Program-made: the position numbers and the translations under genes
The notes under the pieces: generated by a model
Databases searched by the model: none
Seen by the model: only the letters and a program-made list of their open reading frames with translations
Told to the model about the DNA's origin: nothing
Part shown: one piece after another, positions 6,135 to 46,389 of the stretch
How the letters are laid out: each line of letters begins with the position of its first letter
How positions within the stretch are numbered: the first letter of the stretch is position 1
Source: an uncultured virus (IMG/VR IMGVR_UViG_3300037067_020960)
Lineage: Duplodnaviria > Heunggongvirae > Uroviricota > Caudoviricetes
Virus record (IMG/VR): IMGVR_UViG_3300037067_020960
Reading direction: 5' to 3' (one strand)
Length of the DNA: 64,000 nt

Positions 6135-6135
6135 A

Positions 6136-26685: not shown

Positions 26686-27671
26686 AATAAAAATTTCCTT
26701 TGTTTCCATTGATCTTGACACTCAAGCTGAGGATTCTGTTCATATCCCATTTTATCTGCAAGTTTATTGATCTTTGTAATGAGATCAAGATAAGTAATAT
26801 TGTAATTATTTTCTTGAAGTGTTCTCAATAATGCATAAGTGAAAAATCCCTGAGATTTACCATCAATATAAGCATCAGCACTTGTTTCAGTTGATTTACA
26901 ACCAGAGAGTAAAATTCCATTTCTTCTATTAAAATCTTCCCCTTTAGTAGGAGCTGTCTGATTTGCAGTTAATTCAGCCATGGCAGCATCATTAGCATAA
27001 ATTGAATTCTTCAATTTTTTGAGTTCTTTTTCAATGCGAGCACGTGCCTTATAATTTTTAGTCTTTTCCAATTGAGCTTCTAATTCTGCTTGTTTTGCAA
27101 TCAAATCTGATTCTTTGATAACATTTTTTGTCAATATTACCTTAGCTCGATTCTTGAATTTCTCAATGTTTTCCAAAATTTTTGCAGGAGGTTTAATAAA
27201 TTTGGGCAACCTGAGAGCTTTATCTTGAGGAGTTAAAAATCCTCTCAATAAAGATCCAGAATGACATGAATCAGAAATAATAACCAATTGAACAGTTGTA
27301 GGAACTTTTGAAAATAATGAATAAAGATAATCATCGCTGATGTAATTACCATCCCATGTTAAATCTGTCGGGCAAGTTATCTCATCTAACTTATCGATTT
27401 CATCTCCATTCATATCGGGGATTTGAGAACCATGACTTGAGTTATGAAATACAATAGTATCATTACCAGTTGCTCCGGTGATTAATTTCAAAAGATTGTC
27501 TTTAATATTTTTTGTAGTTGCTTCTCTATCTTTTAAAATAACAACATCATGAAATCCAAATTGCGTCATTAACACTTTGCTCATGTTGTCAACATCGTTT
27601 ACACATCCTCGCAAATCAGATCCTGGTATAGAATAATGATTAATTCCTACTAATAAGGCACGTTTAGTCAT
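26682..27671 (-). CDS. Caspase-family (C14, metacaspase-like) protease
   Basis: ALLVGINHY...LRGCVND; SSHGS; SDSCHSG (His-Cys dyad); SGCK..ETSAD; G.FT; QNPQL. Confidence 0.92.
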   Translation of the reverse strand: MTKRALLVGINHYSIPGSDLRGCVNDVDNMSKVLMTQFGFHDVVILKDREATTKNIKDNLLKLITGATGNDTIVFHNSSHGSQIPDMNGDEIDKLDEITCPTDLTWDGNYISDDYLYSLFSKVPTTVQLVIISDSCHSGSLLRGFLTPQDKALRLPKFIKPPAKILENIEKFKNRAKVILTKNVIKESDLIAKQAELEAQLEKTKNYKARARIEKELKKLKNSIYANDAAMAELTANQTAPTKGEDFNRRNGILLSGCKSTETSADAYIDGKSQGFFTYALLRTLQENNYNITYLDLITKINKLADKMGYEQNPQLECQDQWKQRKFLL

Positions 27672-31300: not shown

Positions 31301-34300
31301 TGAATCCTTTTACAATCTGAACATTAATTTCTTCGAATTCTGGAAGATTCATGTCTCCCAATACTTTCCAGGTAATTCCAAAATCTTCTGTTTTAATCAA
31401 CTTTGTAATCCCATCAAATGAAATGATGAGATAAAAAATATTCTTGGAATATCCTTCTCTGAAATCATCAAAGGGATTAATCACGAATGTCTTTATTGGT
31501 TTTGATGCGCCAATTCCTAATTCAGCAATTTCTAGAATTGATACTTCGCCAAATTCTACATATTGATCATAAAATCCAGTAGAACGACTATAAAATAATT
31601 TCCACACAAAATCAATTTGTCTTGTATAAAAACATAGATGAGTGTAACCAATTATTTGAGATGGTAATGTCATTGTTCCATCGTTTATGGCATAAGTAAA
31701 TTTAATAGGTTGACGAAGTATTTTATCTTGTTTGAAGTTTCGGCTATTATCTTTTATTTGAGATTGCATTGGTGGCTGCAAATCTGTAACTGAGATCCCT
31801 ATGTCGAAAAGCGGAACATTACCAGATAAAAATTTTGTTCCATAAAATCCATCATACGCTGTTGTGTAGCTTTTGTTGCCAAATAATGAATAATCATATA
31901 AACCAGCATGAGATATTCCAATATCGGGTAACAACCGAAGCAATTTGAATGGAGATTCAAAATGAATTATTTGATCTGATAAAAATTGCGTTGCGCCAGA
32001 ACTATCGGTAAATAAAATCGAATCTGAATAAGCAATGAGTGCACTATGAAATTGGCGTTGTATAGAGATAAAGAAAAACGTTCTAGAGACGTTTTGTTTA
32101 TCATTAAAGGTAAACCTGTTATAGCCAGTCTTTTTTTGTTCTAGTGACGTATACGAAAGCGTATGGTCATATCCTGTGGGGGATAAAAGAGGAAATGATA
32201 GAATTTCATGTTGTTTTGGTTCGGAATCGAGGAATCTCCCCTCTCTAATTCTCATTTTATAAAGTTTTTCCCTGCTCGTTTGATTATTCAATTTATCAGG
32301 AGAGGCAATATCTTCATTTAGCATTTTATGAATCTTCGTAATTATATCTGTTGAATCATATTCCCATTCAGTCAACATTTTTCCACCATATATAAGAAAC
32401 ACTTCAGTACCAACATATTCGATATCCAAGGGGTATTTTATTGCATTTTCCCAAGATTCATTTTGAAAAATAGTTGGTGAACTTGGACTTATTGATTGTC
32501 TAATCCATTTAATTCCATCATAATAAAATGAGGAAATTCTACCAGAGAAATTAATAGTGTCTTTTATAATTCCTATACAAACAATCACCCATCGATTATT
32601 TGTGATATCCCAATAAACAACAGGAGATATTAAAGCAATTTCACCATTTTTAAAATCTGGATTTGCAATAAATTGCATATTTATAAGAATCAGAGTTCCA
32701 TCTGCATTTAATCCTGATAATCCATAAAGTGAAGCAGTTTTATAAGAATCCCCATGAATACTACTACTTATAGAAATAACATATTGATTTCCATGAATTG
32801 CATCAATAGTTGGTTTAAATGAATAAATATTCTGTTCTTGCAAATATTGAGTTTCAATTAATTCAAAATAATTTTCATCTTCAGGATAAGGATTAACTGA
32901 ATCAATTTTTAATCTATAAGTAGAAAGTCCTATATTACCACGATCTTTTCTAGAATTAATACAATAAACAAATTTAGAATCATTAATAACCAAACCTTTT
33001 GGATTATAAATGTGATCTAACTTTCTTTCTCGTATAAAAAAATGTTCACTAGATACACTATAATACATTAAACTTGTAGATAATTTATTCAAATCAGATA
33101 TAAATATATTTTCTGAACCAGCATCATTAGTTGTGCTAATAAATATATTTCCAGGAGTTGGGATTATTGATAAATCCGGAAAATGTCCTTGTAATAAATC
33201 AGGAGCAAGATTTTCAATGAATTCTTGATAATCAAAACAATTGTAAATTGATTTATCTGAAGCATATAAAAGATAATGAGTTTCATATCCTGCTAATTCT
33301 TTAGAATTTTTTTCAATAATGAAATCGTTTTTTGAATATGCTCCAATCTTTCCACATTGATCAGTAGCAAAATAAATAACATTTTGATGTCCTGTGAAAG
33401 AAGTTTGAGATAATAATTGGTTAGTAATAATATAAAGAGCATCCCAAGTGGGTTCTGGTAAATCACCTCCAGAACTAAATCCTATATTTTGAATCGCTGT
33501 TTTCGCAGCAGCATAACCAACATTTTGCACATGTATTTTTACCCACCCATTCGTAGGATCTGTGATCAATGACGGATTGTATGCGTAACTCGGATCGTCA
33601 TCTTCAAATGAAACAACGGAAATATTTAGATAGGTTGCCGTAGAATAATGTTTATCTAGAATCGAAATCAATTTATCTTTATAACTTTGTAATTCTTCAA
33701 AAGTTGAAGCGGTATTATCCATTACTAAAACTAAATTGACATCAATTATTGATTTCCAAGGATAATTTTTTTCAATTCCCTGAGGAATTTCAGGTAAAAT
33801 ATTTGGAGCATCAGAAAATTTCAATAATTTTTTTTCAATATAATCATCGTAAAGTTTATTTGAAACAATTACTAATTTTTCTTCTGTTAATTTCCCATTT
33901 ATTTCAGCTTGTTTAAGTACTAACATTCGTTTTTTATTATTTTCATCAGTTATAAAAATATTTAATAAACTTCCAGAAAAATTACCATCTGTATACCAAT
34001 CATTAACAGAAGTAGAAGTTCGTTTTGAATTTTTATAAAATTCCTGATTAAATCCATTAATAGTACAAGGATTTGAATATTCATAATCATCAAAATTCGG
34101 ATCATTATATTTTTTGATTTGCACTTCTATAGAATCAGACCATATTTTAAGATCTGATGATTTTGTGACCATTAATTTTTTTGTATTTTGATCTATGTAA
34201 TAAATAAAAAAATATCCTGTTGTATCAACAGATTGATCTGGAATGCAATTTATATTCGTATCAGTATCAATTATTTCTGGCGGTCTATATAAAAATACAT

Positions 34301-34829
34301 ATTCACATTTTAGAGGTTCTTGTAATCCAGTAAAAATAATTGATTTTTTTATATCTTCAGCAGGAAACAATAACGGAATACCTTCTGGAGTTCTTTCTAT
34401 CCAAGTCACTCCGTCATTACAATAAGCAGTATGAACTTTTATTAATTCTGAATCTAATTTGGCCAATTCATCTTCAATTTCAGATTTTGATCTCATTAAT
34501 CTATTATCATCAATTTCTATCCAAACAGTATAAGCAACCTTATCTCGACCATAAGCAATTCTTCTACCGCACATATATTTACCAGGAGCTCCATAAACAG
34601 AATTACAATAAGGAATCAACTTTTTATTTTCGTCAAGATAACCAGCCATAAATATAGAATAGCCATCATAGAATTCAGTCCAATGAATAATTTCTGTAAA
34701 AAATTTCCATAATGGGAATGTGGCATCAAGAGTCAGAAATAATGGTTCATTATCTTTATCAGATTGAACTACTATATCTCCTTTGCGAAAATCTTGATCT
34801 TTTAAATTGTGATTAAATGTGTGCAACAT
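28320..34829 (-). CDS. Very large protein with a vWA domain and Asp-box-like motifs (probable virion/tail-associated protein)
   Basis: 2169 aa; LVLVMDNTAS...GGDLPE...DAL...FATD (MIDAS-like); CNDGVTW, TEDFGITW. Confidence 0.65.
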   Translation of the reverse strand: MLHTFNHNLKDQDFRKGDIVVQSDKDNEPLFLTLDATFPLWKFFTEIIHWTEFYDGYSIFMAGYLDENKKLIPYCNSVYGAPGKYMCGRRIAYGRDKVAYTVWIEIDDNRLMRSKSEIEDELAKLDSELIKVHTAYCNDGVTWIERTPEGIPLLFPAEDIKKSIIFTGLQEPLKCEYVFLYRPPEIIDTDTNINCIPDQSVDTTGYFFIYYIDQNTKKLMVTKSSDLKIWSDSIEVQIKKYNDPNFDDYEYSNPCTINGFNQEFYKNSKRTSTSVNDWYTDGNFSGSLLNIFITDENNKKRMLVLKQAEINGKLTEEKLVIVSNKLYDDYIEKKLLKFSDAPNILPEIPQGIEKNYPWKSIIDVNLVLVMDNTASTFEELQSYKDKLISILDKHYSTATYLNISVVSFEDDDPSYAYNPSLITDPTNGWVKIHVQNVGYAAAKTAIQNIGFSSGGDLPEPTWDALYIITNQLLSQTSFTGHQNVIYFATDQCGKIGAYSKNDFIIEKNSKELAGYETHYLLYASDKSIYNCFDYQEFIENLAPDLLQGHFPDLSIIPTPGNIFISTTNDAGSENIFISDLNKLSTSLMYYSVSSEHFFIRERKLDHIYNPKGLVINDSKFVYCINSRKDRGNIGLSTYRLKIDSVNPYPEDENYFELIETQYLQEQNIYSFKPTIDAIHGNQYVISISSSIHGDSYKTASLYGLSGLNADGTLILINMQFIANPDFKNGEIALISPVVYWDITNNRWVIVCIGIIKDTINFSGRISSFYYDGIKWIRQSISPSSPTIFQNESWENAIKYPLDIEYVGTEVFLIYGGKMLTEWEYDSTDIITKIHKMLNEDIASPDKLNNQTSREKLYKMRIREGRFLDSEPKQHEILSFPLLSPTGYDHTLSYTSLEQKKTGYNRFTFNDKQNVSRTFFFISIQRQFHSALIAYSDSILFTDSSGATQFLSDQIIHFESPFKLLRLLPDIGISHAGLYDYSLFGNKSYTTAYDGFYGTKFLSGNVPLFDIGISVTDLQPPMQSQIKDNSRNFKQDKILRQPIKFTYAINDGTMTLPSQIIGYTHLCFYTRQIDFVWKLFYSRSTGFYDQYVEFGEVSILEIAELGIGASKPIKTFVINPFDDFREGYSKNIFYLIISFDGITKLIKTEDFGITWKVLGDMNLPEFEEINVQIVKGFNPEDKDIDGNFYRYDYLIITKRDNEHSYLVSYKKSDHTTNLESTWLEWEKIREVYISNHEHYDIIDFPKIVLSKVISGTEVTYQGYAIGQMRTAVPSFKMFKIISDVGDIDKNDCNHHYLKIIAELYDLGSIDNLPKFTVLDETLENPDRLITDSNILNSLRLIRNSDLSIDLMLLCSDYSRHEEINRFRTVINVSNPLVSVQTIHIYSKESVVIRYAAQLSNFNNTRSLHTLAILNNGNYIVEYYKWKNEPEEYESTPYQLFETKNQIAHYFVDRSYGEHFKLYIENKDETINIEYTKANLYLQQENIGIKSYIATANEKYCFCNGIAGFTISDRLLKNDLIIMDDVQRVKFQTSKILSEFKTLFYFQFNSYTTGIKPYYIYNQYPYVVYCSSDGNIRKIEFEIDNNDEVQSKIWYGQPSVILSNKFSDADNVLIKDIFGHKLVNHSWQQFNAVYNFVWIRSRAYIVGNELFDINLNFTNMIESDTYTVSFIDPETRDWSPEIDVVQFLENKIILQRSQIPRVDQYDNIVPGSLLTDYRIKKTNHDDKIFYDKKPLFRSIRTYIYDNKFFTASAVLPYVIVGNYYTLSNKDESHFIQLTNIKKSKEIRNLEYEFGEGKFYNWNEYNDSPIRSTVREEELDRFIHKKYKWLSSNTIFEKPLPNLHKRLYLSPELYEIKNYEELDRAKYIHGYSSSYGSDGTKIPDTSVIFTPRNITELPNEPDLFFNLKMKEYMGNALSVPQFVYNTNNKRSILLYFKDLDKLSENANITYGLYLKFYPRTDYQQFSTSYTEYTLGTTNLHEFYFYMPSPKLGRYEFELRYHNRWNCPDTLKITVSRDDKPHLIGLPEEIIWEDSYYDTKIDRISQAMMRKWSARPDIMWDPSDNWFTLFNEFYDEKSKANKVFEISQDSIFRQKYIIWKNANGEENALKALYQQGFNLSFDDYFKIINRNLSNYDNEISNIRYSNAIIYGEFLTLTPLMKTSIKSFKYVKEV

Positions 34830-34845
34830 GAAGAAAGTATAAGTT

Positions 34846-35319
34846 TCACATCAATCTTGGGCGATCTATTTCAAACACCAAAATTGCTTGATCATAACGA
34901 TCTCCAGTAGTACGACTTTTCTTTTTACTTGGACCGCCATGAGCCATTTTGTAAGCTAATTCTTCAAAAGATTTTGTATCTTCTTTTTCTATTAAAGTTT
35001 CATCAGAAACTTCTTTCCTTCTAAAATCGAAATAAACTGTTGGGAATTCCATATCTTCATCATCTTCAACAGTTATTTTGTAAGCAATTGGAAATTTATG
35101 TGTTTTACCATCATCGAATTTCAAAAGAACACAATGATTCATATAATCATTTTGAAATTCTGTTAATATTCCATTGCCTATCAGATTATTGTTCAACAAA
35201 ATAGTAATTTTGTATCCTTTTGAATTTTCAAGATATTTTATTCCATCAGTTCTCGTTTTTTCTGATTCGGTTAAAACATTTTGAATTACCCCATCGAATT
35301 GTCTTGAATTATTTAACAT
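34846..35319 (-). CDS. Hypothetical protein
   Basis: 157 aa; GGAG RBS. Confidence 0.7.
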   Translation of the reverse strand: MLNNSRQFDGVIQNVLTESEKTRTDGIKYLENSKGYKITILLNNNLIGNGILTEFQNDYMNHCVLLKFDDGKTHKFPIAYKITVEDDEDMEFPTVYFDFRRKEVSDETLIEKEDTKSFEELAYKMAHGGPSKKKSRTTGDRYDQAILVFEIDRPRLM

Positions 35320-35644
35320 TCTTTTTATCTCCTTCTTTTATTATTTTTTCCATTTCTCCTTTTATTTCTGGAAACAGATAAAAAAATTCATCATCTGTAT
35401 ATAATTCCAGAGAACATAAAAATTTATAAATGATAGCGATTGATCCGATTCTATTGATTAGATATACTTTAGCGGCAGAATCTAAGATTAAATTAATCTG
35501 TTTGTTAATTTCTTCAGAATAATTTGTAAGTGCTTTTGTAACTTTATTTTTGATATTGAAAAATTTCTGATCAGGAACAGCTTGCGTGCTTGGGTTTAAT
35601 TTACTTTTTTCATTGACATCATGTGATCCAAATGTCTGTCGCAT
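35309..35644 (-). CDS. Hypothetical protein
   Basis: 111 aa; overlaps both neighbours in operon fashion. Confidence 0.65.
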   Translation of the reverse strand: MRQTFGSHDVNEKSKLNPSTQAVPDQKFFNIKNKVTKALTNYSEEINKQINLILDSAAKVYLINRIGSIAIIYKFLCSLELYTDDEFFYLFPEIKGEMEKIIKEGDKKNVK

Positions 35645-35843
35645 TACGATATCTTGCTTCTATTTGTTTTAATTTTTCAGTTTCACTAGATAATTCATTT
35701 AAAAGACCTAAATCAGTCGTTAATTTACCTTGTGAATTTATATCAGTTGAAGGAATAACATGATTTTTAAGATAAGTCAAATCATCTTGAATGGTTGCTA
35801 TCTTACTTGAAAACGAATCTAAAATTTCTGCATCTGTAGCCAT
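35619..35843 (-). CDS. Small hypothetical protein (probably leaderless)
   Basis: 74 aa; TTAAAATT-N5-ATG. Confidence 0.65.
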   Translation of the reverse strand: MATDAEILDSFSSKIATIQDDLTYLKNHVIPSTDINSQGKLTTDLGLLNELSSETEKLKQIEARYRNATDIWIT

Positions 35844-35862
35844 ACTAGAATTTTAACCCATC

Positions 35863-36816
35863 TTAATCAAAGTTTACAGACTTTTTTTCACCAGTCCCTC
35901 CAGAAATTATTGGAGCTGGAGGTTTTATACTATCTGCTTCTTTTTTCTTTCTTGGTTTCAAAGGTAAAGGTTTTTCTTCTGTAGAAGGTTCTGACACTTT
36001 TTCTTCAACCTTTTCTTTTATTTCCGGGACTTCTGTTTTATCTTTTAGATAAACATCAGCACTTGGTCTATGATTTAATACGTCATCTTGATAATATTTC
36101 GTAAGTCTTGTTTTATCAACAACAAATGTATTTTCAAACAATGATTTTCCATTCTCATGATTATATTTGATCCAAGCAAATTGCCATAAAATGAATTTTC
36201 CATTCGAATCAATTGGTCCTAACCATCTTCTATGAAGATCGTGAAGATTTTCAACATTTTCATACATAGATTTCGGAATCAAATATGCATCAAATTTTAT
36301 TGCATACCATTCTGGAGTTTTATACGCCTTGATCCCATGTTGTTTAAAATATTGATCACAGCTCCCAACAGTTTCTTTTTGACTTGTCGGAGGAAATGAA
36401 GCATTTGGTTCGGGAATTGCCTTTGTGAATTCATCGGGGACTTCAACTTTTACCTTCTGCTTTTCTTCTTTTTGTTGCGATTTCGGTTCCGTTTTTTGTT
36501 CTGTACGAGCTTTTGCTTCATCAATAATTTTTTGCATCGCAGCATCAACTGCTGGTGCAGTGTCTTGAATTTTTCCCACAGCTTCAGTGATTTCCTCAGA
36601 AGTGACTTCTCTTGGATCTTTTGAAATTTGAGTTGCGGTAAATACAGGTGCTGCTGGTGCTTTCCAATTGCAGGATGTTAAAAATTGATTTACCAATTCA
36701 TAAGCTTTTTCTTCAAAATCAAATCCCACACGTTTTTCAATTCCATCAATTATTTTTGTTTTAATAAAAACAAGTTTTTTTAATTCATCAAGAAAATTAT
36801 CAATTTCAATCCCCAT
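35863..36816 (-). CDS. Hypothetical protein with low-complexity K/E/P linkers
   Basis: 317 aa; AAGGAG RBS; last gene of the glycosyltransferase operon. Confidence 0.7.
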   Translation of the reverse strand: MGIEIDNFLDELKKLVFIKTKIIDGIEKRVGFDFEEKAYELVNQFLTSCNWKAPAAPVFTATQISKDPREVTSEEITEAVGKIQDTAPAVDAAMQKIIDEAKARTEQKTEPKSQQKEEKQKVKVEVPDEFTKAIPEPNASFPPTSQKETVGSCDQYFKQHGIKAYKTPEWYAIKFDAYLIPKSMYENVENLHDLHRRWLGPIDSNGKFILWQFAWIKYNHENGKSLFENTFVVDKTRLTKYYQDDVLNHRPSADVYLKDKTEVPEIKEKVEEKVSEPSTEEKPLPLKPRKKKEADSIKPPAPIISGGTGEKKSVNFD

Positions 36817-36818
36817 TA

Positions 36819-37883
36819 TTATACTCCTTTATAAAATTCACAAAGTTGTTTAACAACTTTCTTCGAATCGTGATTATTTAATATGTCTATACCCGATTTT
36901 AGTTTTGCTAGACGAAAAGAATCATCTTTAAGTAATAAATTTATTTTTTCAGCGATTTCAATTGGATTTTCTCTATTGCAAGCAACCACTGCATTTTGCG
37001 TATAAGAACCACACCATGTAATATCAACAACCGGAACACACATATATTTCCATCCCTCAAGCATTGTATATTCTGTGCCGTCTCCATCATTTTTTAATTT
37101 GGTAAAATTTGTCAACACCTTTGCTTCTTCATACAAGGGTTTTTTATTGACCAATTTGAATTCTCCAAAATGATGGATATTTGAACAAGTAAAATTTGGT
37201 TCCTTCATACATGCAAGCACATAAAATCCACCACTGTATCCATAGATATTCAATTCGCCCTTTATTTTATCAGCCGATTGAATCAATTTGTGGGTAGCTT
37301 TTACAGAACAAACTCTGGAAGTTGAAACAATCAAATTTTTCTTTATTGAATTGATATCCATCATATCTTCAAGAGATATTAGATGTGGGATATATGGCAT
37401 TCCTTTATCAGTCGAAATTGTTTTTCTGATTGTATATGTAGCACAACAAAATTTGGCAAATTCTTTACAATAAGGTAACGGACTTCTTTCAAGATAATCA
37501 GGATTACTATGCCATACGCCAATAATTTTGGTCTTAACTTTTGAAAAAATATCAAAATAAAATGGAACACTTGATTTCTGATGGAGTTTCCAATGTTCTT
37601 GATCAATTGCATAATCTCCGAAATCAACCAATTGAATTAGATCGTAAGAATTTAATTTATTGACTAAATCAGGATCTTCCCAAAAAAAAACCTTCATTCC
37701 ATCAACCCACATGGCATTTCTTTTGATTTGTTCGAAAATATTGGCACGTTTAGGTTTCTTTTTTAATAAGGCAAAATCAATTTCGGCATTTGTGTATTGT
37801 GTCAAACCTCTGAATAATTCAAGTGCCCAAGTTTCAGCACCGCCAACTTTCCAATCTTTTAATCCTGCAATAAGAATTTTCAT
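36819..37883 (-). CDS. GT-B glycosyltransferase, T4 alpha-glucosyltransferase-like
   Basis: GGAETWALE; SR...K; GTEYTMLEGWKYMCVPVV resembles the AGT/GT4 E-x3-E donor-binding motif. Confidence 0.75.
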   Translation of the reverse strand: MKILIAGLKDWKVGGAETWALELFRGLTQYTNAEIDFALLKKKPKRANIFEQIKRNAMWVDGMKVFFWEDPDLVNKLNSYDLIQLVDFGDYAIDQEHWKLHQKSSVPFYFDIFSKVKTKIIGVWHSNPDYLERSPLPYCKEFAKFCCATYTIRKTISTDKGMPYIPHLISLEDMMDINSIKKNLIVSTSRVCSVKATHKLIQSADKIKGELNIYGYSGGFYVLACMKEPNFTCSNIHHFGEFKLVNKKPLYEEAKVLTNFTKLKNDGDGTEYTMLEGWKYMCVPVVDITWCGSYTQNAVVACNRENPIEIAEKINLLLKDDSFRLAKLKSGIDILNNHDSKKVVKQLCEFYKGV

Positions 37884-40036
37884 TAAAATGAGTACACAGT
37901 TTCCTGACGAACCATTGGCGGAATTATATCCTCAATAGTTACATCTTTGATTAATTTCTTCAGTTCTTTCTGATCGATTTTTACTTCATCTGATTTTATT
38001 TCACAATTTTTTGGAGGATTTTTTACAAGCGAAAAATCCATCAGAACATTATTGGTTAGCTTATAACTTGAAGGCATTTCATTCATGATTTCTTTATCAA
38101 AATCAATCCCTAAACTTCCATCAATATATTCTCTTAGATGAATATGTTTTTTAAGATTTTCGAGAAATTCATAGACGTTAGGTTCAGTTTTTATAAAATC
38201 AATTTTTAATTCTTTTGTTTCAATTGTTGGTAGTTCTTCTAACTTTTTTCTTTTCTTTTTTGGTTTTTCTTTTTTAGCTGGTAATTCTGGATTATTTATC
38301 ACCGGAGGATTCGCCATATATTCGTCAATTATTTTGAATGCTTCTTCCAGATTTACATTTTTCTTTTCTTCTGGAGATACTTCATAAAAAACAGTATCAT
38401 CACATTTTAAATATTCTTTAATCTTTTCTTGTTCAAAAGTTCCTTTGTAAACCTTAGTGATCCATTCTTTATTACGAAATATTTCGTATTTATGAAGCGG
38501 TATTGGATAAGAATCCCATTGACCACCACAATTTTTACATCTTACTCTTGACGCATATGCCTTATCAGAAATAATTAACTTTCCACAAGATACACAACAA
38601 CGTGGTAATCCTCCATCAGGATAAGTCGGTGGTTGTTTCAAAGTGACTCCATCAACATAATTCAGTTCTTTGAACATCCTCAAATAAACATGTTTATTTC
38701 TAATCATTCTATCTTTATCATAGAGAGCTTGTTGTTCGAATTCATATTGACCAAGTTTGAAATTTTCAATAAGATCTTTCCATCCTGGTTGAACCATTTT
38801 CTCACGTTGTTGATTATAAAATATTTCCAAATCATCAATTAAGGTCACAGGATTTATTGACATAACAAAATCTCTATGTTCTTCAATAAATTCTCTTCGT
38901 TGCTGAGGAGTTTGTCTTTTTAATAGGTCGTATTTTTCTAAGGCATCCTGACGATTTTTGATTGTAAATTTTTCCGGAGTTCCAATTGATTTAGCCAAAT
39001 TTGCATCAATCAATACTGCAGTGTTTGAAGTCGTCGCTTCTGAATATCTTGTATTAATAACTCCCAATCTCTCAAATCCTTCACTTGCAATTACTACATG
39101 ACAAAGGCTATCATTATAAATTTCTTCACACATCATTTGAGGAATTGATCCGTTATATTTTATAAAGGGTAATCGTGATTTTAAAAAATCTATATCCCAA
39201 TTACCATACAAATCAACAGTAAGTTTCCCATCAGTATTGTAATATTGTTCAAATTTATTATACCGACCCTTTTGGGAGCCAATATAACAAAGCTCACGGG
39301 TTGGCTTATCCTTAATAGGAAATGAGCCAGGACGATGCCCAAGGAAGGCAGATGGCCACCACAAATAATCATAATTAATTTTATCATACATAGCACGATA
39401 CATTGAATTAGCTTCTTTAAACAATTTACCATTTTCTCCAACAAATTTTGCTTTTGAAAGAATGGCATATTGACATCCCTTAAGAATTTGTTCTGGAGTT
39501 CCAAATTTGAGATTCTTATAGAAAGAAGCTGAAAAGGCATATCCATTGATTCCAAAAAATAAATCTGGATCAGATTGATGATAAAATACAACACCTTCAT
39601 AATTTGCAAGCAATTCGTACGTTCTGAAAATATGAGATTCATCAATATATGAATTTCTGAACATCATATTAGTTGGACCATGTTCTACATAAACCAAATC
39701 AGTATTCTTTTCGATCAATTCTTCTGGTTTATATTTTATTTTCTTAAGAAATTCAAGACCTGCTGGAGGATTTTCAAGATATGAACGATAATCTTTTTTA
39801 ATCTCTGAATAAATCGTAACTTCCCATCCACGACGCACAACTTCGCGAAGAAATGCTAATCGTTCTTCGTGACCACCAGTAGTTTCCTTTGGATCATTCA
39901 TATCCAAGGCAATGCCAAGATTATATCTTAGATAAGCTAATTTCTTAATAGAATGTTTTAACCCACTAAGATCTTTCTTATGCTTAAGAAATTTTTCAGT
40001 GAGACCCAAATATTTTATGAAATCAGCCATTAACAA
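37883..40036 (-). CDS. GT-B glycosyltransferase, T4 beta-glucosyltransferase-like, with a C-terminal Zn-ribbon extension
   Basis: LCYIGS..GR; DLYGNW; YNGSIPQMM.EE...INTRYSEA.TSN.AVLID parallels the T4 BGT C-terminal domain as I recall it; CVSCG...CKNCG. Confidence 0.72.
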   Translation of the reverse strand: MLMADFIKYLGLTEKFLKHKKDLSGLKHSIKKLAYLRYNLGIALDMNDPKETTGGHEERLAFLREVVRRGWEVTIYSEIKKDYRSYLENPPAGLEFLKKIKYKPEELIEKNTDLVYVEHGPTNMMFRNSYIDESHIFRTYELLANYEGVVFYHQSDPDLFFGINGYAFSASFYKNLKFGTPEQILKGCQYAILSKAKFVGENGKLFKEANSMYRAMYDKINYDYLWWPSAFLGHRPGSFPIKDKPTRELCYIGSQKGRYNKFEQYYNTDGKLTVDLYGNWDIDFLKSRLPFIKYNGSIPQMMCEEIYNDSLCHVVIASEGFERLGVINTRYSEATTSNTAVLIDANLAKSIGTPEKFTIKNRQDALEKYDLLKRQTPQQRREFIEEHRDFVMSINPVTLIDDLEIFYNQQREKMVQPGWKDLIENFKLGQYEFEQQALYDKDRMIRNKHVYLRMFKELNYVDGVTLKQPPTYPDGGLPRCCVSCGKLIISDKAYASRVRCKNCGGQWDSYPIPLHKYEIFRNKEWITKVYKGTFEQEKIKEYLKCDDTVFYEVSPEEKKNVNLEEAFKIIDEYMANPPVINNPELPAKKEKPKKKRKKLEELPTIETKELKIDFIKTEPNVYEFLENLKKHIHLREYIDGSLGIDFDKEIMNEMPSSYKLTNNVLMDFSLVKNPPKNCEIKSDEVKIDQKELKKLIKDVTIEDIIPPMVRQETVYSF

Positions 40037-41010
40037 AACTCCAAATGGGAATTATCCATCATTTCTAACATTTGTTTATTATAAATATGCCAACGACAAT
40101 CAAACACATTACATTCTTTCTTATTTATACCTTGAATCGCTTCTTTGTGACGTTGTGATCCCCAAATTTTTTTAAACCCAGATTTAAAAGCATTACCTAT
40201 TTTATGAGAATCTTCACGAAAATTGTAATAACAACAAAGATAAACATCGCCATAAACATCAATCATTGTATGAATTGGTGATAGCCAACAATCACAAGTT
40301 AATTCTGTATGATTAATATTCCCATAAACATTTCCATATTGTTTTTTATATTGATCAATAATTATTTGAGTATCTGGAGAAACTGGATGGGTAGTTGGTT
40401 TTTCAGATTTAATATGAATATAATCCGCACCCTGCGTGTAACATTTTTCTATAATTGACCCTAATTTTTTTTCATTTAAACTATTAACCAAAATTTTTGT
40501 TCCCACATAACATTTGCTGCCGATTTCTTTTTTAATATCAGCAAGCATTCTGATATTTTCCCATTTAATTTCATTATCAATAGAAATCCTAACATAAGAT
40601 GCAGTTTTTAAAATTTCAATCCCACGATTACGATCAATTGCATCTCCATTGGTAAACATCCCAAATTTCAATTTAAATACTCTAATAATTTCTAAAAGTC
40701 TTTCAAATTGTGGATGCATTGTGGGTTCACCACCTCCGCAAAATTCAACCGCTTCTAATCCCATATTTTTTAATTCTTTTAATAAATTATGATAAGATTG
40801 AATATTGATAAATGGACTTTTAATATTTTCTTTTTCCCATTCACCATTATACATATCCCAATCCTTGTAATGGCAACCTAAACAATGATGATTGCAAGCA
40901 TAACTAGGATAAATCAAAGCCATTCTTGGATTTGGAAATTTGCCCTGTTGAATTAATTTTGCTTCATTATAATATGTCAGTATTTTATTCGCTATAAATG
41001 GATTACTCAT
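40030..41010 (-). CDS. Radical SAM/SPASM enzyme
   Basis: CNHHCLGC (CxxxCxxC); GGGEP; TNG; RISID; C...IDVYGDVYLCC...IGN...W...C. Confidence 0.92.
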   Translation of the reverse strand: MSNPFIANKILTYYNEAKLIQQGKFPNPRMALIYPSYACNHHCLGCHYKDWDMYNGEWEKENIKSPFINIQSYHNLLKELKNMGLEAVEFCGGGEPTMHPQFERLLEIIRVFKLKFGMFTNGDAIDRNRGIEILKTASYVRISIDNEIKWENIRMLADIKKEIGSKCYVGTKILVNSLNEKKLGSIIEKCYTQGADYIHIKSEKPTTHPVSPDTQIIIDQYKKQYGNVYGNINHTELTCDCWLSPIHTMIDVYGDVYLCCYYNFREDSHKIGNAFKSGFKKIWGSQRHKEAIQGINKKECNVFDCRWHIYNKQMLEMMDNSHLEFC

Positions 41011-41081
41011 TAAAACTCCTTTTTATTGACTATACCGTAAAAAAGAATTTTAATCGAAATTATTTTGAAGAATTTAAAAAT

Positions 41082-41114
41082 AAAAAAAGCGATAAGATTG
41101 TATCTTATCGCTTT
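41082..41114 (-). terminator. Intrinsic terminator
   Basis: AAAGCGATAAGAT / ATCTTATCGCTTT stem ending in a T7 run on the minus strand, just after the stop at 41130. Confidence 0.8.
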
Positions 41115-41129
41115 AATGAAATGAAGAAA

Positions 41130-42158
41130 TTATCCCATACAAACAAGAACAAAATCATTTAAAACTTTGATTAAATTCAAACCAGCTTTTTTAAGAATTT
41201 TTTTACTTTCTGAAGTTGTAACATCCACTTTTTTACCAATTTCTTTTTCAATAAATCCCATGAGTTGTATTGTATCAAATGGTTTATTAAAAGCGAATTG
41301 AGTTGAAAAATGTGTAATCGCCCAAGATTCTTTTTCTTTAGCTTTATCATAAGGATTCTTTGGTCTAATATCATCAGAGATTTTTTTAATCGAAATTTCT
41401 TCATCTATGACATTAAAGAGAATTCCTCCCATTGCAACAACACCTAAAGACCAAGAAGATTTAACAGGAAATTCTCTATTTTCTTTGTAAAGCTCTTTGT
41501 ATAAATCACAAGCTTGTTTTGTTAAATCTTTAATTAACACTTTTTTTCCAATGTTATTTTTATAAATTTCAAATAACACATAATTATATTTATCAGAACT
41601 TTTTCCATTTTGTTTATAAGGATTAATAATGCCGGAAGAATCTACAGGAACAGAAATTTCTTTTGATTTAATTTCTTCTTTTTTAGCAGGTTTCTCAGCT
41701 CGTATTTTCATTTTCTGCTTCATTTCTGTGATTTCTGGTTCTTCATCATCATTATCATCTTTTTCATCTTCTAAATCTTCTACTTCTGAAGCTTCCATAT
41801 TAATAATTTTCGTAGTATCAACTTTTGGTGGTTCAATTTTCTTTTCTTCTTTTTTAATTGGATCTTTTGAGAGAACCTGATCAAAAATTTCTTTACATTT
41901 TTTTGTAGTATTGCATATTTTACAATCTTCCGAAGCATCAGAAATTAATCCTATACAATCTGGACTTTTTTGTTCCACTTTTTCTTTTTGATATTTCATT
42001 ACATGAAAGAATAGTCTATCTTTTTGTTGTTTTGTAAGATTACCAATGGTAAATCCTTGTGCTGATAAATGTTGATTAAGAACATTTTCATCTAAATCTT
42101 GAATTCTTTTCCACATTTCTTCCGCAGTCAACGTTAAAAGGCTCGCTAGTGAAGACAT
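41130..42158 (-). CDS. Hypothetical protein with a Cys cluster and acidic linker
   Basis: 342 aa; C....D...CKIC....C; own CGGTAT promoter and terminator. Confidence 0.7.
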   Translation of the reverse strand: MSSLASLLTLTAEEMWKRIQDLDENVLNQHLSAQGFTIGNLTKQQKDRLFFHVMKYQKEKVEQKSPDCIGLISDASEDCKICNTTKKCKEIFDQVLSKDPIKKEEKKIEPPKVDTTKIINMEASEVEDLEDEKDDNDDEEPEITEMKQKMKIRAEKPAKKEEIKSKEISVPVDSSGIINPYKQNGKSSDKYNYVLFEIYKNNIGKKVLIKDLTKQACDLYKELYKENREFPVKSSWSLGVVAMGGILFNVIDEEISIKKISDDIRPKNPYDKAKEKESWAITHFSTQFAFNKPFDTIQLMGFIEKEIGKKVDVTTSESKKILKKAGLNLIKVLNDFVLVCMG

Positions 42159-42228
42159 TTGATATCTCCTATATTTAATTTTTTAATTACATTACATTAT
42201 AATACCGTAAAAATCTAATAATGAAAAG

Positions 42229-42966
42229 TTATTTTAAACAAATATTTTTAAAAGCTTTATATTCCTTTTTTATGCTTGAATATTTATCAACATTAAAATT
42301 TACAATATTCATATTGAATTTAAATGTAAGAAGATGTTTTTCATAGAATTTTATTATTAATTCCCTAAATTTATCACCTTTATTTTCATATCTAGCATTT
42401 TCAAGAGTTGATTTATCTTTTTTCATCCATTTAGGATAAAGACCTTCGCTATAAAAATAAATCACTTTATCAACAGGTAAATCTCCCCATGCTGCTTCTT
42501 CAAGTATTTCAACCAATTTTAATTTTTTAAGATTTGAGTCTTTTTTAGTTGAATCATCAAATATTTGATCTATCTTCGTAAGGCTATATTTCATAAACAT
42601 TAAATCCGGATTACATTTATCTTGTTCAGCTATATCAGCACTCATATAAGCTAAAGCTGACAAATAAAAACGATCAAGAATCACATTCTTTTTTTGCTTA
42701 AATATTAAATCGTAAAGTTTTCTATAATGAAAACAATGAGACCAATTATGAAGCATTTGATTTTCGAAAGCTGTGCATTTGAATTCACTTTTTGCTAATT
42801 TTCTCACAAAAGCAGTGATTGGTGTAGAATCATCTGGTTGATGTTGATAAATCCACTCAGGAAACTCTGCTGTCAAACGATTTGTCATTTCAGATTTACC
42901 CAAATGATCCACACCCTCAATTACAATTAATTTGCCTCTATTTTTCTTCATCGGAAAACTCCTCAA
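42229..42966 (-). CDS. tmk: Thymidylate/dNMP kinase
   Basis: LIVIEGVDHLGKS (P-loop); ILDRFYLSALAY. Confidence 0.85.
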   Translation of the reverse strand: MRSFPMKKNRGKLIVIEGVDHLGKSEMTNRLTAEFPEWIYQHQPDDSTPITAFVRKLAKSEFKCTAFENQMLHNWSHCFHYRKLYDLIFKQKKNVILDRFYLSALAYMSADIAEQDKCNPDLMFMKYSLTKIDQIFDDSTKKDSNLKKLKLVEILEEAAWGDLPVDKVIYFYSEGLYPKWMKKDKSTLENARYENKGDKFRELIIKFYEKHLLTFKFNMNIVNFNVDKYSSIKKEYKAFKNICLK

Positions 42967-43279
42967 AAATTTCTGCTACTTTTTCGTCTTGTATTTCTTC
43001 GTAATTTTTATCAAATGTTTTTTCACTACATATAAGTATTTCGCCATTACTTTTTTTAATTATCCAGTCGCCAAATTCCACAGATAAAACTTCTTGTTTG
43101 GCACGCACATGAATATGAAGCCTATGATAATCTCCATCTACTTTTTGCAGGAGATAATTTGGTCCCAAAAATTTCAAAATAAAATGCATATTTGCCCCTG
43201 CCCACATATATGCTTCAACAACTTCTTCAGTTACGACTTTTGCTTCTTCTAATATTATTTTTGTTTTAAATTTTGGCAT
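42938..43279 (-). CDS. Conserved small phage protein
   Basis: VEAYMW.G.N...GDWIIK..NGE...C...F..NYE pattern, common in phages. Confidence 0.65.
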   Translation of the reverse strand: MPKFKTKIILEEAKVVTEEVVEAYMWAGANMHFILKFLGPNYLLQKVDGDYHRLHIHVRAKQEVLSVEFGDWIIKKSNGEILICSEKTFDKNYEEIQDEKVAEIFEEFSDEEK

Positions 43280-43287
43280 TTCAACTC

Positions 43288-43935
43288 TTAGTGTGCATTT
43301 TTTTTATCCCAGACTCGTTCTTCACCAAATCTTATTTCCCATTCTTGAACCTTTTCATCAAAAAATGAAAAAATAATTTTTAATCCTTCTATCTTTAAAA
43401 ATTTTTCTTTATTCAGGTAATTATATCCCGTCCAAAAAGGATGAATAAATTCTATATTACCTGTATCTATTTCAATAATAGATTTTCCAACTAATTGAAG
43501 CATATCGGCAATTGTTAAAATTATTCCTTCTATTGATTCAGGATCTTTATATTTACACACTTCATCAGATAATTCTTCTTTAAAAAACATTTTTTTATAA
43601 AAGTGTTCTTGATTATATTTAAAAGAAACTTTTTCATAAAGTTTTTTAAATTCTTTATCGAAATTTTTAAAATGATGATTTAAATCAGATCCTAATACTT
43701 CTTCAATATCATGAAATATTGCATTTGTTAATAATTTACTTAAATTTACAGGGTGATTATTTTGCATTTCTATTTGAGCCAAAACCCAACACACCATTGC
43801 AACCTGATGACAATGTTGTGAAATACTTTCAGGAAATAATTGATGCATCCCAGTGAAACGAATTACATTAATCATTTTAACTGGAGTGCCAGTTATAAAC
43901 TCAATCATAGTGTTTTTTATTATTTCATTTTCCAT
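43288..43935 (-). CDS. HD-domain 5'-deoxynucleotide phosphohydrolase (YfbR/DatZ-like)
   Basis: VIRF...ESISQH...AIFHDIEE..GSD..H.FK...ADML. Confidence 0.85.
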   Translation of the reverse strand: MENEIIKNTMIEFITGTPVKMINVIRFTGMHQLFPESISQHCHQVAMVCWVLAQIEMQNNHPVNLSKLLTNAIFHDIEEVLGSDLNHHFKNFDKEFKKLYEKVSFKYNQEHFYKKMFFKEELSDEVCKYKDPESIEGIILTIADMLQLVGKSIIEIDTGNIEFIHPFWTGYNYLNKEKFLKIEGLKIIFSFFDEKVQEWEIRFGEERVWDKKNAH

Positions 43936-43949
43936 AGAGTTTTAATACC

Positions 43950-44954
43950 CTAAAAGAGTTCTCTTTTTCTTGATAAAGTTTTTCTTTTTTCTATAAGTTC
44001 GTTTAAATAGTTTTTATCAATATTTCCCGGATCTATATCTTCATCTTCTTTTCTAATTTCTATATATGACACTGGATATCCTTCTTTGCCCAATCTTGTT
44101 GTCATTTCATATGATTCATTTTTCGTATTATAATCAAAAAATGTAATAATCTCTTTAAAATTTTTTTTTCTATAAAATCTAAGTATGTTTTGAATCTGAA
44201 CACTTTTAAATTTGATTCCAAAAACACCCAACACACTAAATCCATTTAAATAAGTTCCAATAACATCAAATGGACCTTCCACGACAAATAATTGTTCTGA
44301 AATTTTAGGAAGCCATAAGCCATATAATAATTCCTTGTTAAAAGATTCATAAGGATTGTAATATCTTGGAAATTCATTTGGATATTTTTTTGCCAAATTA
44401 TCATCAATAATTCTGCCCACCCAACTAATTTGTTTACTTTCTTCATCATAAATTGGAAGAATAATGTATTTATTTAATTCAGGAGAAAAACAAGGATTAA
44501 AAACTTTTATATTTTCATAAGAAAATCCTCTATTCAAAAGATATTTTGGATAATTGTCTTTTATAATTGGTGAAATAATATTTGGCAATTTCACTCCCGG
44601 TTCTTTCTTTTCTTTTTTGATTAAAAAATCCCCTCTATCATGACGAATAAAACCACCTGTACCAACAAGATGAGATTTTGCTTCAAGATAATTTATCCCT
44701 TCTAATATGGAATAAAATTTTATAAAATCATGACCACGAAGCGAACAAGGTTCTCCATTATTTTCAATACCAAAACAATAAAATTTAAATTTTCCTGTTC
44801 GTTCATCATAATTAATTGATAAACTAGGAGTATTTTTCCGATGAACATGTTCGGGATTTTTGCAAACAATTAATTTTCTAATAACACTCCCATTTGCAAC
44901 AATCCCTAATGCTTCAAGATATTCACGAATAGAAATGTTATAATCATTAGTCAT
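43950..44954 (-). CDS. DNA primase (Zn finger + TOPRIM)
   Basis: C...H....PSLS...FYCFG...C; YL..RG; ILPI; GR; VVEGPFD. Confidence 0.9.
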   Translation of the reverse strand: MTNDYNISIREYLEALGIVANGSVIRKLIVCKNPEHVHRKNTPSLSINYDERTGKFKFYCFGIENNGEPCSLRGHDFIKFYSILEGINYLEAKSHLVGTGGFIRHDRGDFLIKKEKKEPGVKLPNIISPIIKDNYPKYLLNRGFSYENIKVFNPCFSPELNKYIILPIYDEESKQISWVGRIIDDNLAKKYPNEFPRYYNPYESFNKELLYGLWLPKISEQLFVVEGPFDVIGTYLNGFSVLGVFGIKFKSVQIQNILRFYRKKNFKEIITFFDYNTKNESYEMTTRLGKEGYPVSYIEIRKEDEDIDPGNIDKNYLNELIEKRKTLSRKRELF

Positions 44955-44955
44955 T

Positions 44956-46389
44956 TTAATTGATCAATTCTGGATCTAAATCGCCCTTCCACAAAAATTT
45001 ATTATTAAACTTATTAATCATCATATGTTCATAAGCACTTTCAAGAAATATATGATTACTATCAGAAGAAGCATCATCACGAGCTATAGATGGTGTAAGA
45101 CGTAAAATATTATTACGTTTTTCATCTTTATTCTGATTAATAAATACAAGATTATCCAATGCAGGAATTACATTATAACCGCCCGCAATATCTTCAACTG
45201 AAACATCTTTTAAATCTCTTTGAGTTCCTTCACCTTCTTTTTGCCAAGCTCCTCTATTTGTTTGTAATGCGGTCCAAATTGCCAAAGCATTTTTTTGATA
45301 TTTATCATATCCATATTCTGTAGCAAGTTCTTTTAATTCCCAAATAATTTGTTCATGAATTTTCCAATCTTGAATACCTTTTTCCATTGTTAATTTCGAT
45401 GATGCAAAAATTTGAGCATAATCAAGAGCCATCAAATCAATTTTCGAACCATATTTTTCATAAAGAATTCTTAAAAGATTTTTTAAATCAATGCAATTTG
45501 TTTTATTCTGCATCCCTTTAAAAATCCAAAGTTTATTCATCTTGTTTTCATAACAACTCATGCGTTTCATAATTACATTTTCTTGATCTGAAGAAAAATC
45601 CCATCTTTGAAGTTTTTTATAATTAACATAACCTGCTCTGGAATATAATCTATTAAGAACTTGAAATTCTGAATTTTCTAATATAACTATTAACACATCT
45701 CTTCCTAATTCGTATGCACCAAAAGCCAAATTTGCTAAGATAATTGATTTACCAACTTTTGTTCTACCAAGAAAAGAATTTACTGTACCCTTTCTTGTAG
45801 GAATCCAATTGTCTAATTCATCAATTCCTGTGCGAATAATTTCTCCATTTGATGCCTTATGATCTCTAAAATCTTTTCGTTCCTGAGCCCAATTTTTAAA
45901 TTCTTTACCAAAATCAACCACTTTAATAGTTGACATATTACTAATCATTGTAGATGCCATTTTTTGTAAATCCTCAAGCCCATTTATCCATCCCTGCACA
46001 TTATCTCTTTCAGAATGTTTATCATTCAAATTCTTTAATTCATCAATGATTAAATCAACTGTAACATGCTTTATGCAAGTTTCTACAGCATTTTCATCTG
46101 GCTCATTTTTATCAGCATACAATATTTCGATATGATCAAGAATCTCTCCTGCTTCTGATTCAGATTTTAATTTCTTATAAATCTCTCCCTTTAACAAATG
46201 AGGTTCAATTAAAGTATGATTATCTTGAAAATAGGAATAAACAATTTCAAGAATTATGCTATTATGTTTGCTAAATGCTCTTGCAGGAATTGTTCTGTAA
46301 TGATTAGCAAGAAATTCAACATCTTTAATTAATTTCTTAACTAATTCATATTGAAATTCTTTATATTGTTGTGTATTTAAATCATTCAC
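44956..46389 (-). CDS. DnaB-like replicative helicase
   Basis: TGIDELD; GRTKVGKS; ILE; LDYAQI; WTALQTNR. Confidence 0.9.
   Translation of the reverse strand: MNDLNTQQYKEFQYELVKKLIKDVEFLANHYRTIPARAFSKHNSIILEIVYSYFQDNHTLIEPHLLKGEIYKKLKSESEAGEILDHIEILYADKNEPDENAVETCIKHVTVDLIIDELKNLNDKHSERDNVQGWINGLEDLQKMASTMISNMSTIKVVDFGKEFKNWAQERKDFRDHKASNGEIIRTGIDELDNWIPTRKGTVNSFLGRTKVGKSIILANLAFGAYELGRDVLIVILENSEFQVLNRLYSRAGYVNYKKLQRWDFSSDQENVIMKRMSCYENKMNKLWIFKGMQNKTNCIDLKNLLRILYEKYGSKIDLMALDYAQIFASSKLTMEKGIQDWKIHEQIIWELKELATEYGYDKYQKNALAIWTALQTNRGAWQKEGEGTQRDLKDVSVEDIAGGYNVIPALDNLVFINQNKDEKRNNILRLTPSIARDDASSDSNHIFLESAYEHMMINKFNNKFLWKGDLDPELIN

Follow-up and report, generated by a model that had tools for sequence, protein, structure and literature searches.

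The DNA beta-glucosyltransferase of phage T4 (BGT; gene b-gt, structure 1bgt, CAZy family GT63) is the characterised enzyme that most resembles a protein encoded in a 64-kb stretch, referred to below as the window, of the 139,329-bp contig of an uncultured phage. In the window the gene of this protein is part of an operon of four genes, the first of which encodes a radical S-adenosylmethionine (SAM) enzyme. Searches of open-access papers and preprints gave no description of a BGT-type transferase in such a coupling, and phage DNA glycosylation known to us uses ready-made uridine diphosphate (UDP)-glucose or arabinose donors. The operon is interpreted here as a glycosylation module with the phage's own DNA as the most likely, although not proven, target, and glycosylation of DNA with a radical-tailored sugar is given about an even chance. 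If this is true, it would be the first case of a DNA sugar tailored by a radical enzyme, the range of DNA sugar chemistry would be extended by the combination of a BGT-type transferase with a radical SAM enzyme of the sugar type, and the product would be a new restriction- and CRISPR-resistant DNA. It would also give first access to the function of a radical SAM family that is widespread in the glycan clusters of anaerobes and uncharacterised.

Like the T4 enzyme, the window protein is phage-encoded and its gene lies in a replication block. Both Rossmann halves are homologous, and the residues aligned with D100, S189, R195, R269 and E272 of T4 BGT are kept. The identity is about 20%, and the window protein has a zinc ribbon and a tail of 200 residues in addition. 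While b-gt adjoins gene 42 (hydroxymethylase), the window gene is instead coupled to the radical SAM gene. The closest relative from a cultured phage is gp102 of Maribacter phage Molly, a "beta glucosyl transferase" that also belongs to the BGT-type family (by profile, E 1.6e-63; tblastn E 4e-6). Its gene is flanked on one side by that of a nucleotide-sugar epimerase and on the other by that of a homologue of thymidylate synthase (Pfam E 2.1e-25), with a UDP-glucose dehydrogenase alongside. Molly differs from the window phage in having these NAD-dependent sugar enzymes and the thymidylate-synthase homologue, and no radical SAM enzyme of the operon's family.

A second comparison is offered by Bacillus phage SP-15 and Listeria phage LIS04. 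The carbohydrate cluster of SP-15 (genes 146-155) is proposed in the genome paper to make the decorations (glucosyl and phosphoglucuronolactone) of dihydroxypentyluracil DNA, a pathway in which GT4-type enzymes are implicated (PMC5977210). One product of this cluster, gp153, resembles the 354-aa protein of the window operon. The cluster lies directly upstream of an XPD-like helicase gene that is homologous to one in the window, the 764-aa window helicase being 33% identical to the helicases of SP-15 and LIS04. An NAD ligase is also common to these phages. In contrast to the window phage, SP-15 and LIS04 have no BGT-type gene and no radical SAM enzyme of the operon's family, and in SP-15 neither the BGT-family nor the radical SAM family profile had a match; the similarity is weak and the roles within the cluster are proposed ones.

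For the radical SAM enzyme there are two kinds of precedent. The isomerase gp53 of Pseudomonas phage M6 is the only radical SAM step known to us in DNA hypermodification; it acts in thymidine hypermodification, on an amino-acid adduct on DNA (PMC8989533). It is similar to spore photoproduct lyase (SPL), whereas the window enzyme is of the SPASM/twitch type, belongs to a sugar context and has glycosyltransferases as its partners. DesII, BlsE and BtrN act on nucleotide- or nucleoside-linked sugars and aminocyclitols and are among the best structural matches of the window enzyme. The identities are only 13-16%, SkfB, PqqE and SuiB score about equally, and the window family, unlike these enzymes, has conserved motifs of its own (FCGGGEP and CC at 259-260).

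The two glycosyltransferases

As a single query, the 715-aa product of the second gene gave no match to Pfam, PHROG, NCBIfam or PDB sequences. With HMMER, 1.84 billion representatives were searched exhaustively and 106 relatives obtained, 95 of which were aligned with the window protein (alignment A2, 96 members); P0100, P0120, P0121, P0146, P0148, P0154, P0155, P0158, P0159, P0162 and P0167 were left out as fragments or short sequences. The A2 profile matched T4 BGT in the PDB with an E value of 1.7e-34 over residues 5-344 of 351. Nine PDB sequences were matched at E <=1, of which the second was a mutant of T4 BGT and the third reached only E 0.23. Alignment of a 14-member profile (A3) with T4 BGT by hhalign gave a probability of 98.6 and an E value of 5.2e-16 over 322 columns, with window residues 31-394 corresponding to T4 BGT residues 1-334 and both Rossmann halves covered. 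As judged from these profiles, the protein is a full-length homologue of T4 BGT, which is more than the label "BGT-like" of the preliminary description had claimed. In an ESM Atlas look-up, T4-Gluco-transf clusters were ranked first (score 0.92, TM score 0.79).

The gene starts at ATG 40030 (715 aa, identical to database protein P0001) and not at TTG 40036; residue numbers follow the 717-aa reading from TTG. D156 is invariant in the family and is aligned with D100 of T4 BGT, presumably the catalytic aspartate. S254, R258, R330 and E333 are aligned with S189, R195, R269 and E272, and K256 stands where T4 BGT has R191; from the T4 structures, these Ser, Arg and Glu residues are assigned to UDP binding. 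The zinc ribbon CxxC-x17-CxxC is kept in most close relatives (alignment A3). Net charge and pI were uninformative for the transferases, as T4 BGT is basic and both the T4 alpha-glucosyltransferase (AGT) and the Molly protein are acidic.

Among 4,728 open reading frames (ORFs) of 128 loci, only Molly gp102 and T4 BGT (E 4.6e-36) were matched by the profile over its whole length. The match of CgeB-like transferases from five loci was confined to model positions 185-375. Eight of 401 Bacillota genomes had a profile match, in all cases in the C-terminal, donor-binding part (model position 125 onward). The restriction of full-length matches to Molly and T4 BGT suggests that the N-terminal, acceptor-side half is common only to phage enzymes. 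T4 BGT, the sole characterised enzyme that shares this half, acts on DNA.

The combination of the long protein with the radical SAM enzyme seems to be conserved at only one other place, a contig of 4,319 bp that pairs a relative of the radical SAM enzyme (54% identity) with a relative of the long protein (59-62%). Scans of IMG/VR with the long protein, the radical SAM enzyme, two BGT-family alignments and the DnaB helicase gave no relatives, and neither did a scan of genome contigs with the BGT-family profile. P0174 (709 aa), in which a BGT-type part of the P0064 family is joined to a dCTP deaminase, was not used as evidence; the join is a shared stretch of 7 residues and may be an assembly chimera. 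The dCTP deaminase part is identical to one annotated in Candidatus Falkowbacteria. P0174 represents either a real fusion or neighbour or a chimera.

The 354-aa product of the third gene had no match but itself among 5.8 billion proteins and no Pfam family even at E 10. Its ESM Atlas model (pTM 0.81) gave TM scores of 0.70-0.82 to viral and cellular GT4 clusters and of 0.78 to an AGT cluster. As judged from this model, the protein is a GT-B/GT4-type transferase, and the fold cannot single out AGT. An AlphaFold2 (AF2) model from the single sequence had a pLDDT of 32.8 and was unusable for a fold search. Comparison with T4 AGT gave a BLASTP E value of 2.8, an hhalign probability of 0.8% (alignment A6) and no match to PF11440 at E 10. 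By sequence, the protein is not a demonstrable relative of T4 AGT. Of the two T4 labels assigned in the preliminary description, profile comparison therefore upheld that of the long protein (BGT, 98.6) and not that of the 354-aa protein (AGT, 0.8%), for which the language-model and structure look-up is the only basis.

A different relative of the 354-aa protein was indicated in SP-15. BLASTP with gp153 gave an E value of 5e-7 at 24% identity over 228 aa, and tblastn in a search of five loci gave 6.7e-5. The motifs of both proteins are colinear along the full length. With a hidden Markov model of gp153 and its LIS04 homologue, the sole match among 4,786 proteins was the 354-aa protein (E 0.002); in the reverse phmmer search the sole match was gp153 (E 0.0023). 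The link is weak but specific.

The radical SAM enzyme and its family

The label of the first gene product as a radical SAM/SPASM protein held, as both Pfam models scored above their cut-offs (Radical_SAM 41.4 bits, cut-off 29.5; SPASM 36.9 bits, cut-off 21.5). The cysteines of the CxxxCxxC motif (C39, C43 and C46) and the motif FCGGGEP are invariant in the family alignment (A1), and C91, C241, C259, C260, C300 and C305 are also conserved. The C-terminal domain has five of these cysteines (241, 259, 260, 300 and 305) compared with the canonical seven. It may hold one or two auxiliary clusters. Profiles of NCBIfam and the PDB placed the enzyme only generally among SPASM/twitch enzymes; SuiB was the best sequence-profile match, and BlsE (1e-14) and DesII (3.5e-13) were among the best.

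For an AF2 model, 60 relatives were found and 57 of them were aligned with the window protein (58 rows; P0047, P0062 and P0063 were dropped). The model had a pLDDT of 93.4. VIA-align gave the highest score with DesII (Z 23.4, rmsd 4.3, 314 residues aligned), followed by SkfB (Z 21.9, rmsd 3.5, 267 aligned), BlsE (Z 21.2, rmsd 3.3, 275 aligned), PqqE (Z 20.1, rmsd 3.1, 246 aligned), SuiB (Z 19.9, rmsd 3.9, 277 aligned) and BtrN (Z 18.7, rmsd 3.0, 225 aligned). Enzymes of sugar nucleotides are thus top-ranked with the model but tied with peptide enzymes. No SPL entry was present among the 50 VIA-align matches listed or the Foldseek matches listed, an absence that does not amount to exclusion.

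SuiB was also the best Foldseek match, and together with its rank among the profiles and the score of SkfB this would suit an enzyme that matures a peptide or protein in the manner of RiPPs (ribosomally made peptides that are modified after translation), the product of which is then glycosylated by the transferases. The Alkaliphilus relative, whose gene adjoins those of PqqD, ABC transporters and a CAAX protease, points in the same direction. The enzyme itself, however, has no RiPP-recognition domain, with only about 25 residues ahead of the cluster motif, and the operon contains neither a PqqD-like gene nor a small cysteine-rich ORF (a 74-aa ORF has no cysteine and a 111-aa ORF has one). As a T4-BGT-type partner would also be left unexplained, peptide maturation is considered very improbable.

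The neighbourhoods of the family were analysed in the best 80 loci of 139 confirmed metagenome relatives; six were dropped, their radical SAM ORF having been lost in the ORF selection, and 71 loci had neighbours, with 370 proteins labelled by Pfam on 48 representatives and 71 singletons. A member of a glycosyltransferase cluster was present within four genes of the radical SAM gene in at least 32 of the 71 loci. A B12-binding radical SAM enzyme was present in 30, and one or the other in 49. The transferases were of types GT2, GT4, GT9 and GT29, and the other neighbours included NeuB, DegT, epimerases/dehydratases, Wzx, Wzy, PMT_2 and methyltransferases. The named genomes (46 loci) were those of anaerobes, namely Alkaliphilus, Lachnospiraceae, Smithella, many Hydrogenedentota and Bathyarchaeia. 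In three annotated Clostridia loci a nucleosidase-type gene (PNP_UDP_1), a PEP-utilising enzyme, NDK, PqqD, ABC transporters, GT2 and a B12-binding radical SAM enzyme were neighbours. From these gene contexts, the window enzyme is assigned to a family of anaerobe glycan gene clusters. The preliminary description had left it between alteration of the base and of the sugar; neighbourhoods and fold favour the sugar and do not favour the base.

Nine phage-type loci (L003, L006, L022-L024, L026-L028 and L079; 36-39% identity) have a TPR-GT1 gene next to the radical SAM gene, and five of them (L022-L024, L027 and L028) also carry an SU10-type major capsid gene. The gene order of this subgroup is capsid gene, TPR-GT1, radical SAM, GT29-like, and in L031 the radical SAM gene occurs with GT29 and NeuB. 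The TPR-GT1/radical SAM/GT29-like arrangement is a candidate virion cassette for glycosylation with nonulosonic acid. Among L022-L028, L003, L006, L031 and L079, some also carry NeuB, methyltransferase or RraA-like genes. In L019, L025, L061 and L067, which are bacterial glycan clusters, a trio recurs in which a CgeB-like transferase is accompanied by two radical SAM enzymes, one B12-binding and the other a SPASM enzyme of the operon's family. It is joined by a Wzx flippase in L019, L025 and L067, and L121 duplicates the L025 gene.

In the closest radical SAM relative for which DNA is available (L002:2-1885, 53% identity), about 330 residues are inserted exactly within the FCGGGEP motif. The inserted part resembles an intein whose middle is homing-endonuclease-like; such inteins usually mark important phage genes. 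In the window itself a 259-aa protein (21491-22270, minus strand) also matched SPASM (1.4e-5). It has no CxxxCxxC and was rejected as a second copy of the module. It is a degenerate or stand-alone SPASM domain and adjoins a probable sigma-factor-like protein (22309-23481).

Proposed pathway and target

DNA as the target is suggested by the whole-length kinship with T4 BGT together with the phage-only acceptor-side half, by the hydroxymethylase-type neighbours of the BGT-type gene in T4 and Molly, and by the gp153 link together with the position of the operon in the replication and nucleotide block. Tailoring of a sugar by the radical SAM enzyme is suggested by the glycosyltransferase-rich neighbourhoods of its family and by the DesII/BlsE-like fold. 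The second occurrence of the pair, on the 4,319-bp contig, also counts in favour. As a more specific and tentative proposal, these enzymes would constitute an oxygen-independent hypermodification in which the BGT-type and the second transferase build a pyrimidine sugar that the SPASM/twitch radical SAM enzyme remodels; a bolder variant, in which this enzyme would create the hydroxyl acceptor of the base as well, is conceivable. The BGT-type enzyme would move a sugar from a UDP-sugar onto a hydroxyl-bearing pyrimidine of DNA, for example 5-hydroxymethylcytosine or 5-hydroxymethyluracil, which would be supplied by an enzyme whose gene lies outside the window. The GT4-type enzyme may add a second sugar or modify other sites. 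The radical SAM enzyme would tailor the sugar without oxygen by chemistry of the DesII, BlsE or BtrN type (dehydrogenation, deamination, decarboxylation or epimerisation), acting on the nucleotide sugar or once the sugar has been attached, and the neighbouring kinase-like and HD nucleotidase genes could shape the pool of modified nucleotides.

Several results weigh against this interpretation. The link to gp153 is weak and partly circumstantial; at E 1e-3 the 354-aa protein had no match in the whole phage database, gp153 included, and the role of gp153 in SP-15 is itself a proposed one. The window long protein failed the Pfam model T4-Gluco-transf (PF09198) even at E 10, and among the 96 members of A2 the CgeB-like model Glyco_trans_1_2 was matched by 18, T4-Gluco-transf by three and Glyco_trans_4_4 by one, so that the BGT-type family appears to lie between the CgeB-like and the T4 model. 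The profile of the radical SAM family gave no match in SP-15, LIS04 or Molly. None of the 80 metagenome radical SAM loci contained a homologue of the BGT-type, the 354-aa or any other operon protein, and these loci look like clusters for cell-surface or virion glycans, which the family serves elsewhere; the capsid genes beside five phage-type loci agree with this. SkfB, a peptide enzyme, lies within 1.5 Z of DesII, and in Clostridia relatives of the radical SAM enzyme adjoin PqqD, ABC transporters and a CAAX protease. Within the window, no thymidylate-synthase-type enzyme, ThyX, TET/JBP or nucleotide-sugar enzyme was found.

Alternatively, the operon may glycosylate a target other than DNA, such as a virion protein or a polymer of the host envelope (e.g., as a block to superinfection), with the BGT-type fold reused for a non-DNA acceptor and the radical SAM enzyme tailoring the glycan. 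The polysaccharide-type clusters with a transferase close to the radical SAM gene, the phage loci with TPR-GT1 or with GT29 and NeuB, the CgeB-like matches and the lack of an acceptor-making enzyme in the window all favour such a function. Transferase and radical SAM cassettes of pelagimyophages were read as lipopolysaccharide-related by the authors (PMC7029224). In a paper on cyanophages, a radical SAM maturase is described near sugar genes, and DNA is not mentioned in the accessible text (PMC12801897). On the other hand, the full-length match including the acceptor-side half is limited to T4 BGT and Molly, the bacterial CgeB-like proteins sharing only the C-terminal half. Moreover, the operon is located in the replication block and not among structural or lysis genes, and Pfam scans revealed no flippase, polymerase, lipid-carrier or membrane transferase gene nearby. 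Glycosylation of a non-DNA target is therefore regarded as possible without being probable.

The acceptor search covered 53 of the 59 non-overlapping window ORFs of at least 60 aa. Together with six-frame tblastn searches of the window with T4 gp42, T4 gp56 and the thymidylate synthase homologue, UDP-glucose dehydrogenase and epimerase of Molly (best E 0.31), it bore out the earlier statement that no hydroxymethylase is visible in the window. This absence and the order radical SAM-transferase-transferase would be explained if the radical SAM enzyme acted on DNA itself, for example by converting the methyl group of thymine or 5-methylcytosine to hydroxymethyl without oxygen, after which both transferases would glycosylate the product; no classical hydroxymethylase would be needed. 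The occurrence of the phage in groundwater and landfill metagenomes would suit this chemistry, and M6 gp53 is a precedent for radical SAM action on modified DNA (PMC8989533). Against it, members of the family occur widely in glycan clusters of bacteria and archaea that lack a DNA context, and the solved folds closest to the enzyme include those of sugar-nucleotide and peptide enzymes, with no DNA enzyme among the matches listed. The window is also less than half of the contig, with about 75 kb lying outside it, and an ordinary hydroxymethylase may lie elsewhere. Direct action on DNA is accordingly thought improbable.

Glycosylation of DNA with a radical-tailored sugar is likewise compatible with the habitat. 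Identical pieces of the region were present in contigs of four sequencing runs from three studies of groundwater and landfill metagenomes, one run possibly being the source of the window, which is a record of presence only; there was no RNA dataset among the runs listed for the region. This occurrence agrees with an environment poor in oxygen, where a radical SAM step is plausible. One of the few plus-strand genes of the window (24757-25413) encodes a fusion of a uracil-DNA glycosylase superfamily domain with a zinc-finger tail of the TnpB/Cas12f type, and such a glycosylase argues against uracil-containing DNA in this phage.

Operon signals and further genes of the window

The G+C content of the window is 29%, as in a low-GC phage, and nearly all genes are on the minus strand. 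The genes of the preliminary description were all confirmed at their places on this strand beside the primase and helicase genes (Table 1). The primase and DnaB-like helicase genes are followed, from 5' to 3', by those of the HD/YfbR-like nucleotidase, the 113-aa protein, the thymidylate-kinase-like protein and the 342-aa protein, and then by the terminator. The Shine-Dalgarno sequence and the four operon genes come after the terminator on the same strand.

Table 1. Positions of the operon, its signals and the adjacent genes in the window
Feature	Position	Strand	Basis
DnaB-like helicase	44956-46389	-	Pfam
Primase	43950-44954	-	Pfam
HD-domain 5'-deoxynucleotidase, YfbR-like, 215 aa	43288..43935	-	Pfam YfbR-like 83.4 bits, 2e-23; PHROG 7076
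113-aa unknown, overlaps kinase gene	42938..43279	-	PHROGs 1810/419/4502, all unnamed
Divergent thymidylate-kinase-like P-loop kinase, 245 aa	42229..42966	-	Pfam Thymidylate_kin 40.7 bits, 2.7e-10
342-aa protein, 5' of terminator, possible module member	41130..42158	-	
Intrinsic terminator, 13-bp stem followed by T run	41086..41114	-	Terminator scan and sequence
Shine-Dalgarno AAGGAG ahead of radical SAM start	41016..41021	-	Sequence
Radical SAM enzyme with SPASM/twitch-type C-terminal domain, 326 aa	40030..41010	-	Pfam, family alignment
715-aa protein: T4-BGT-type GT-B domain, zinc ribbon, Lys-rich linker, C-terminal extension	37883..40030	-	
GT-B domain of 715-aa protein, residues 31-394	38855..39946	-	hhalign to T4 BGT 1-334
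Zinc ribbon CxxC-x17-CxxC of 715-aa protein, residues 481-503	38528..38596	-	Sequence and family alignment
GT-B/GT4-type glycosyltransferase, 354 aa (predicted)	36819..37883	-	ESM Atlas model; SP-15 gp153 similarity
317-aa unknown, last coupled gene	35863..36816	-	

The stop codon of the radical SAM gene and the start codon of the 715-aa gene overlap in TAATG, and an identical overlap joins the 715-aa and 354-aa genes. The spacer between the 354-aa and 317-aa genes is 2 nt, and AAAGGAG is located shortly 5' of the latter. From this arrangement the four genes are judged to be translationally coupled, in agreement with the tight coupling noted before. The upstream terminator, a strong one, was likewise recovered (stem 41114-41086). 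The promoter motifs reported at 41032-41053 did not stand, as a scan for sigma-70 sites listed none there; 46 such sites were present in 34500-44500, which is below shuffled sequences (57.1 +/- 7.1). No terminator was found by the scan on the minus strand from 41010 down to 34500, and the transcription unit may therefore extend past 35863 into three small ORFs and a 2169-aa gene. Residues 8-47 of the 317-aa protein have a weak similarity (E 0.095) to the stretch 624-666 in the tail of the long protein. In the phage collection, Megablast with the region as query found nothing.

The deoxynucleotide kinase and HD hydrolase named as neighbours in the preliminary description were found by Pfam, and by PDB matches to 5uiv (9.4e-7) and to YfbR 2paq (1.5e-7), respectively. 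The HD protein also matched OxsA (1e-5), and the kinase-like protein reached 48 bits with the NCBIfam model of dTMP kinase, which is under the cut-off of 83 bits. The 113-aa protein matched no Pfam family below E 0.01, and the 342-aa protein no family of Pfam, PHROG or NCBIfam.

Among the other genes of the minus strand, the 2169-aa protein (28320-34829) is encoded directly downstream of the operon and had no family or PDB sequence match. Two paralogous proteins without known function (5127-6164 and 7599-9422) are 66% identical over 269 residues and contain internal repeats. Two further products are unusual in a phage, a caspase-domain protein (26682-27671; 6.8e-32) and an ADP-ribosyl transferase of the PARP type that has WGR and regulatory domains (13530-14741; Pfam 2.8e-26).

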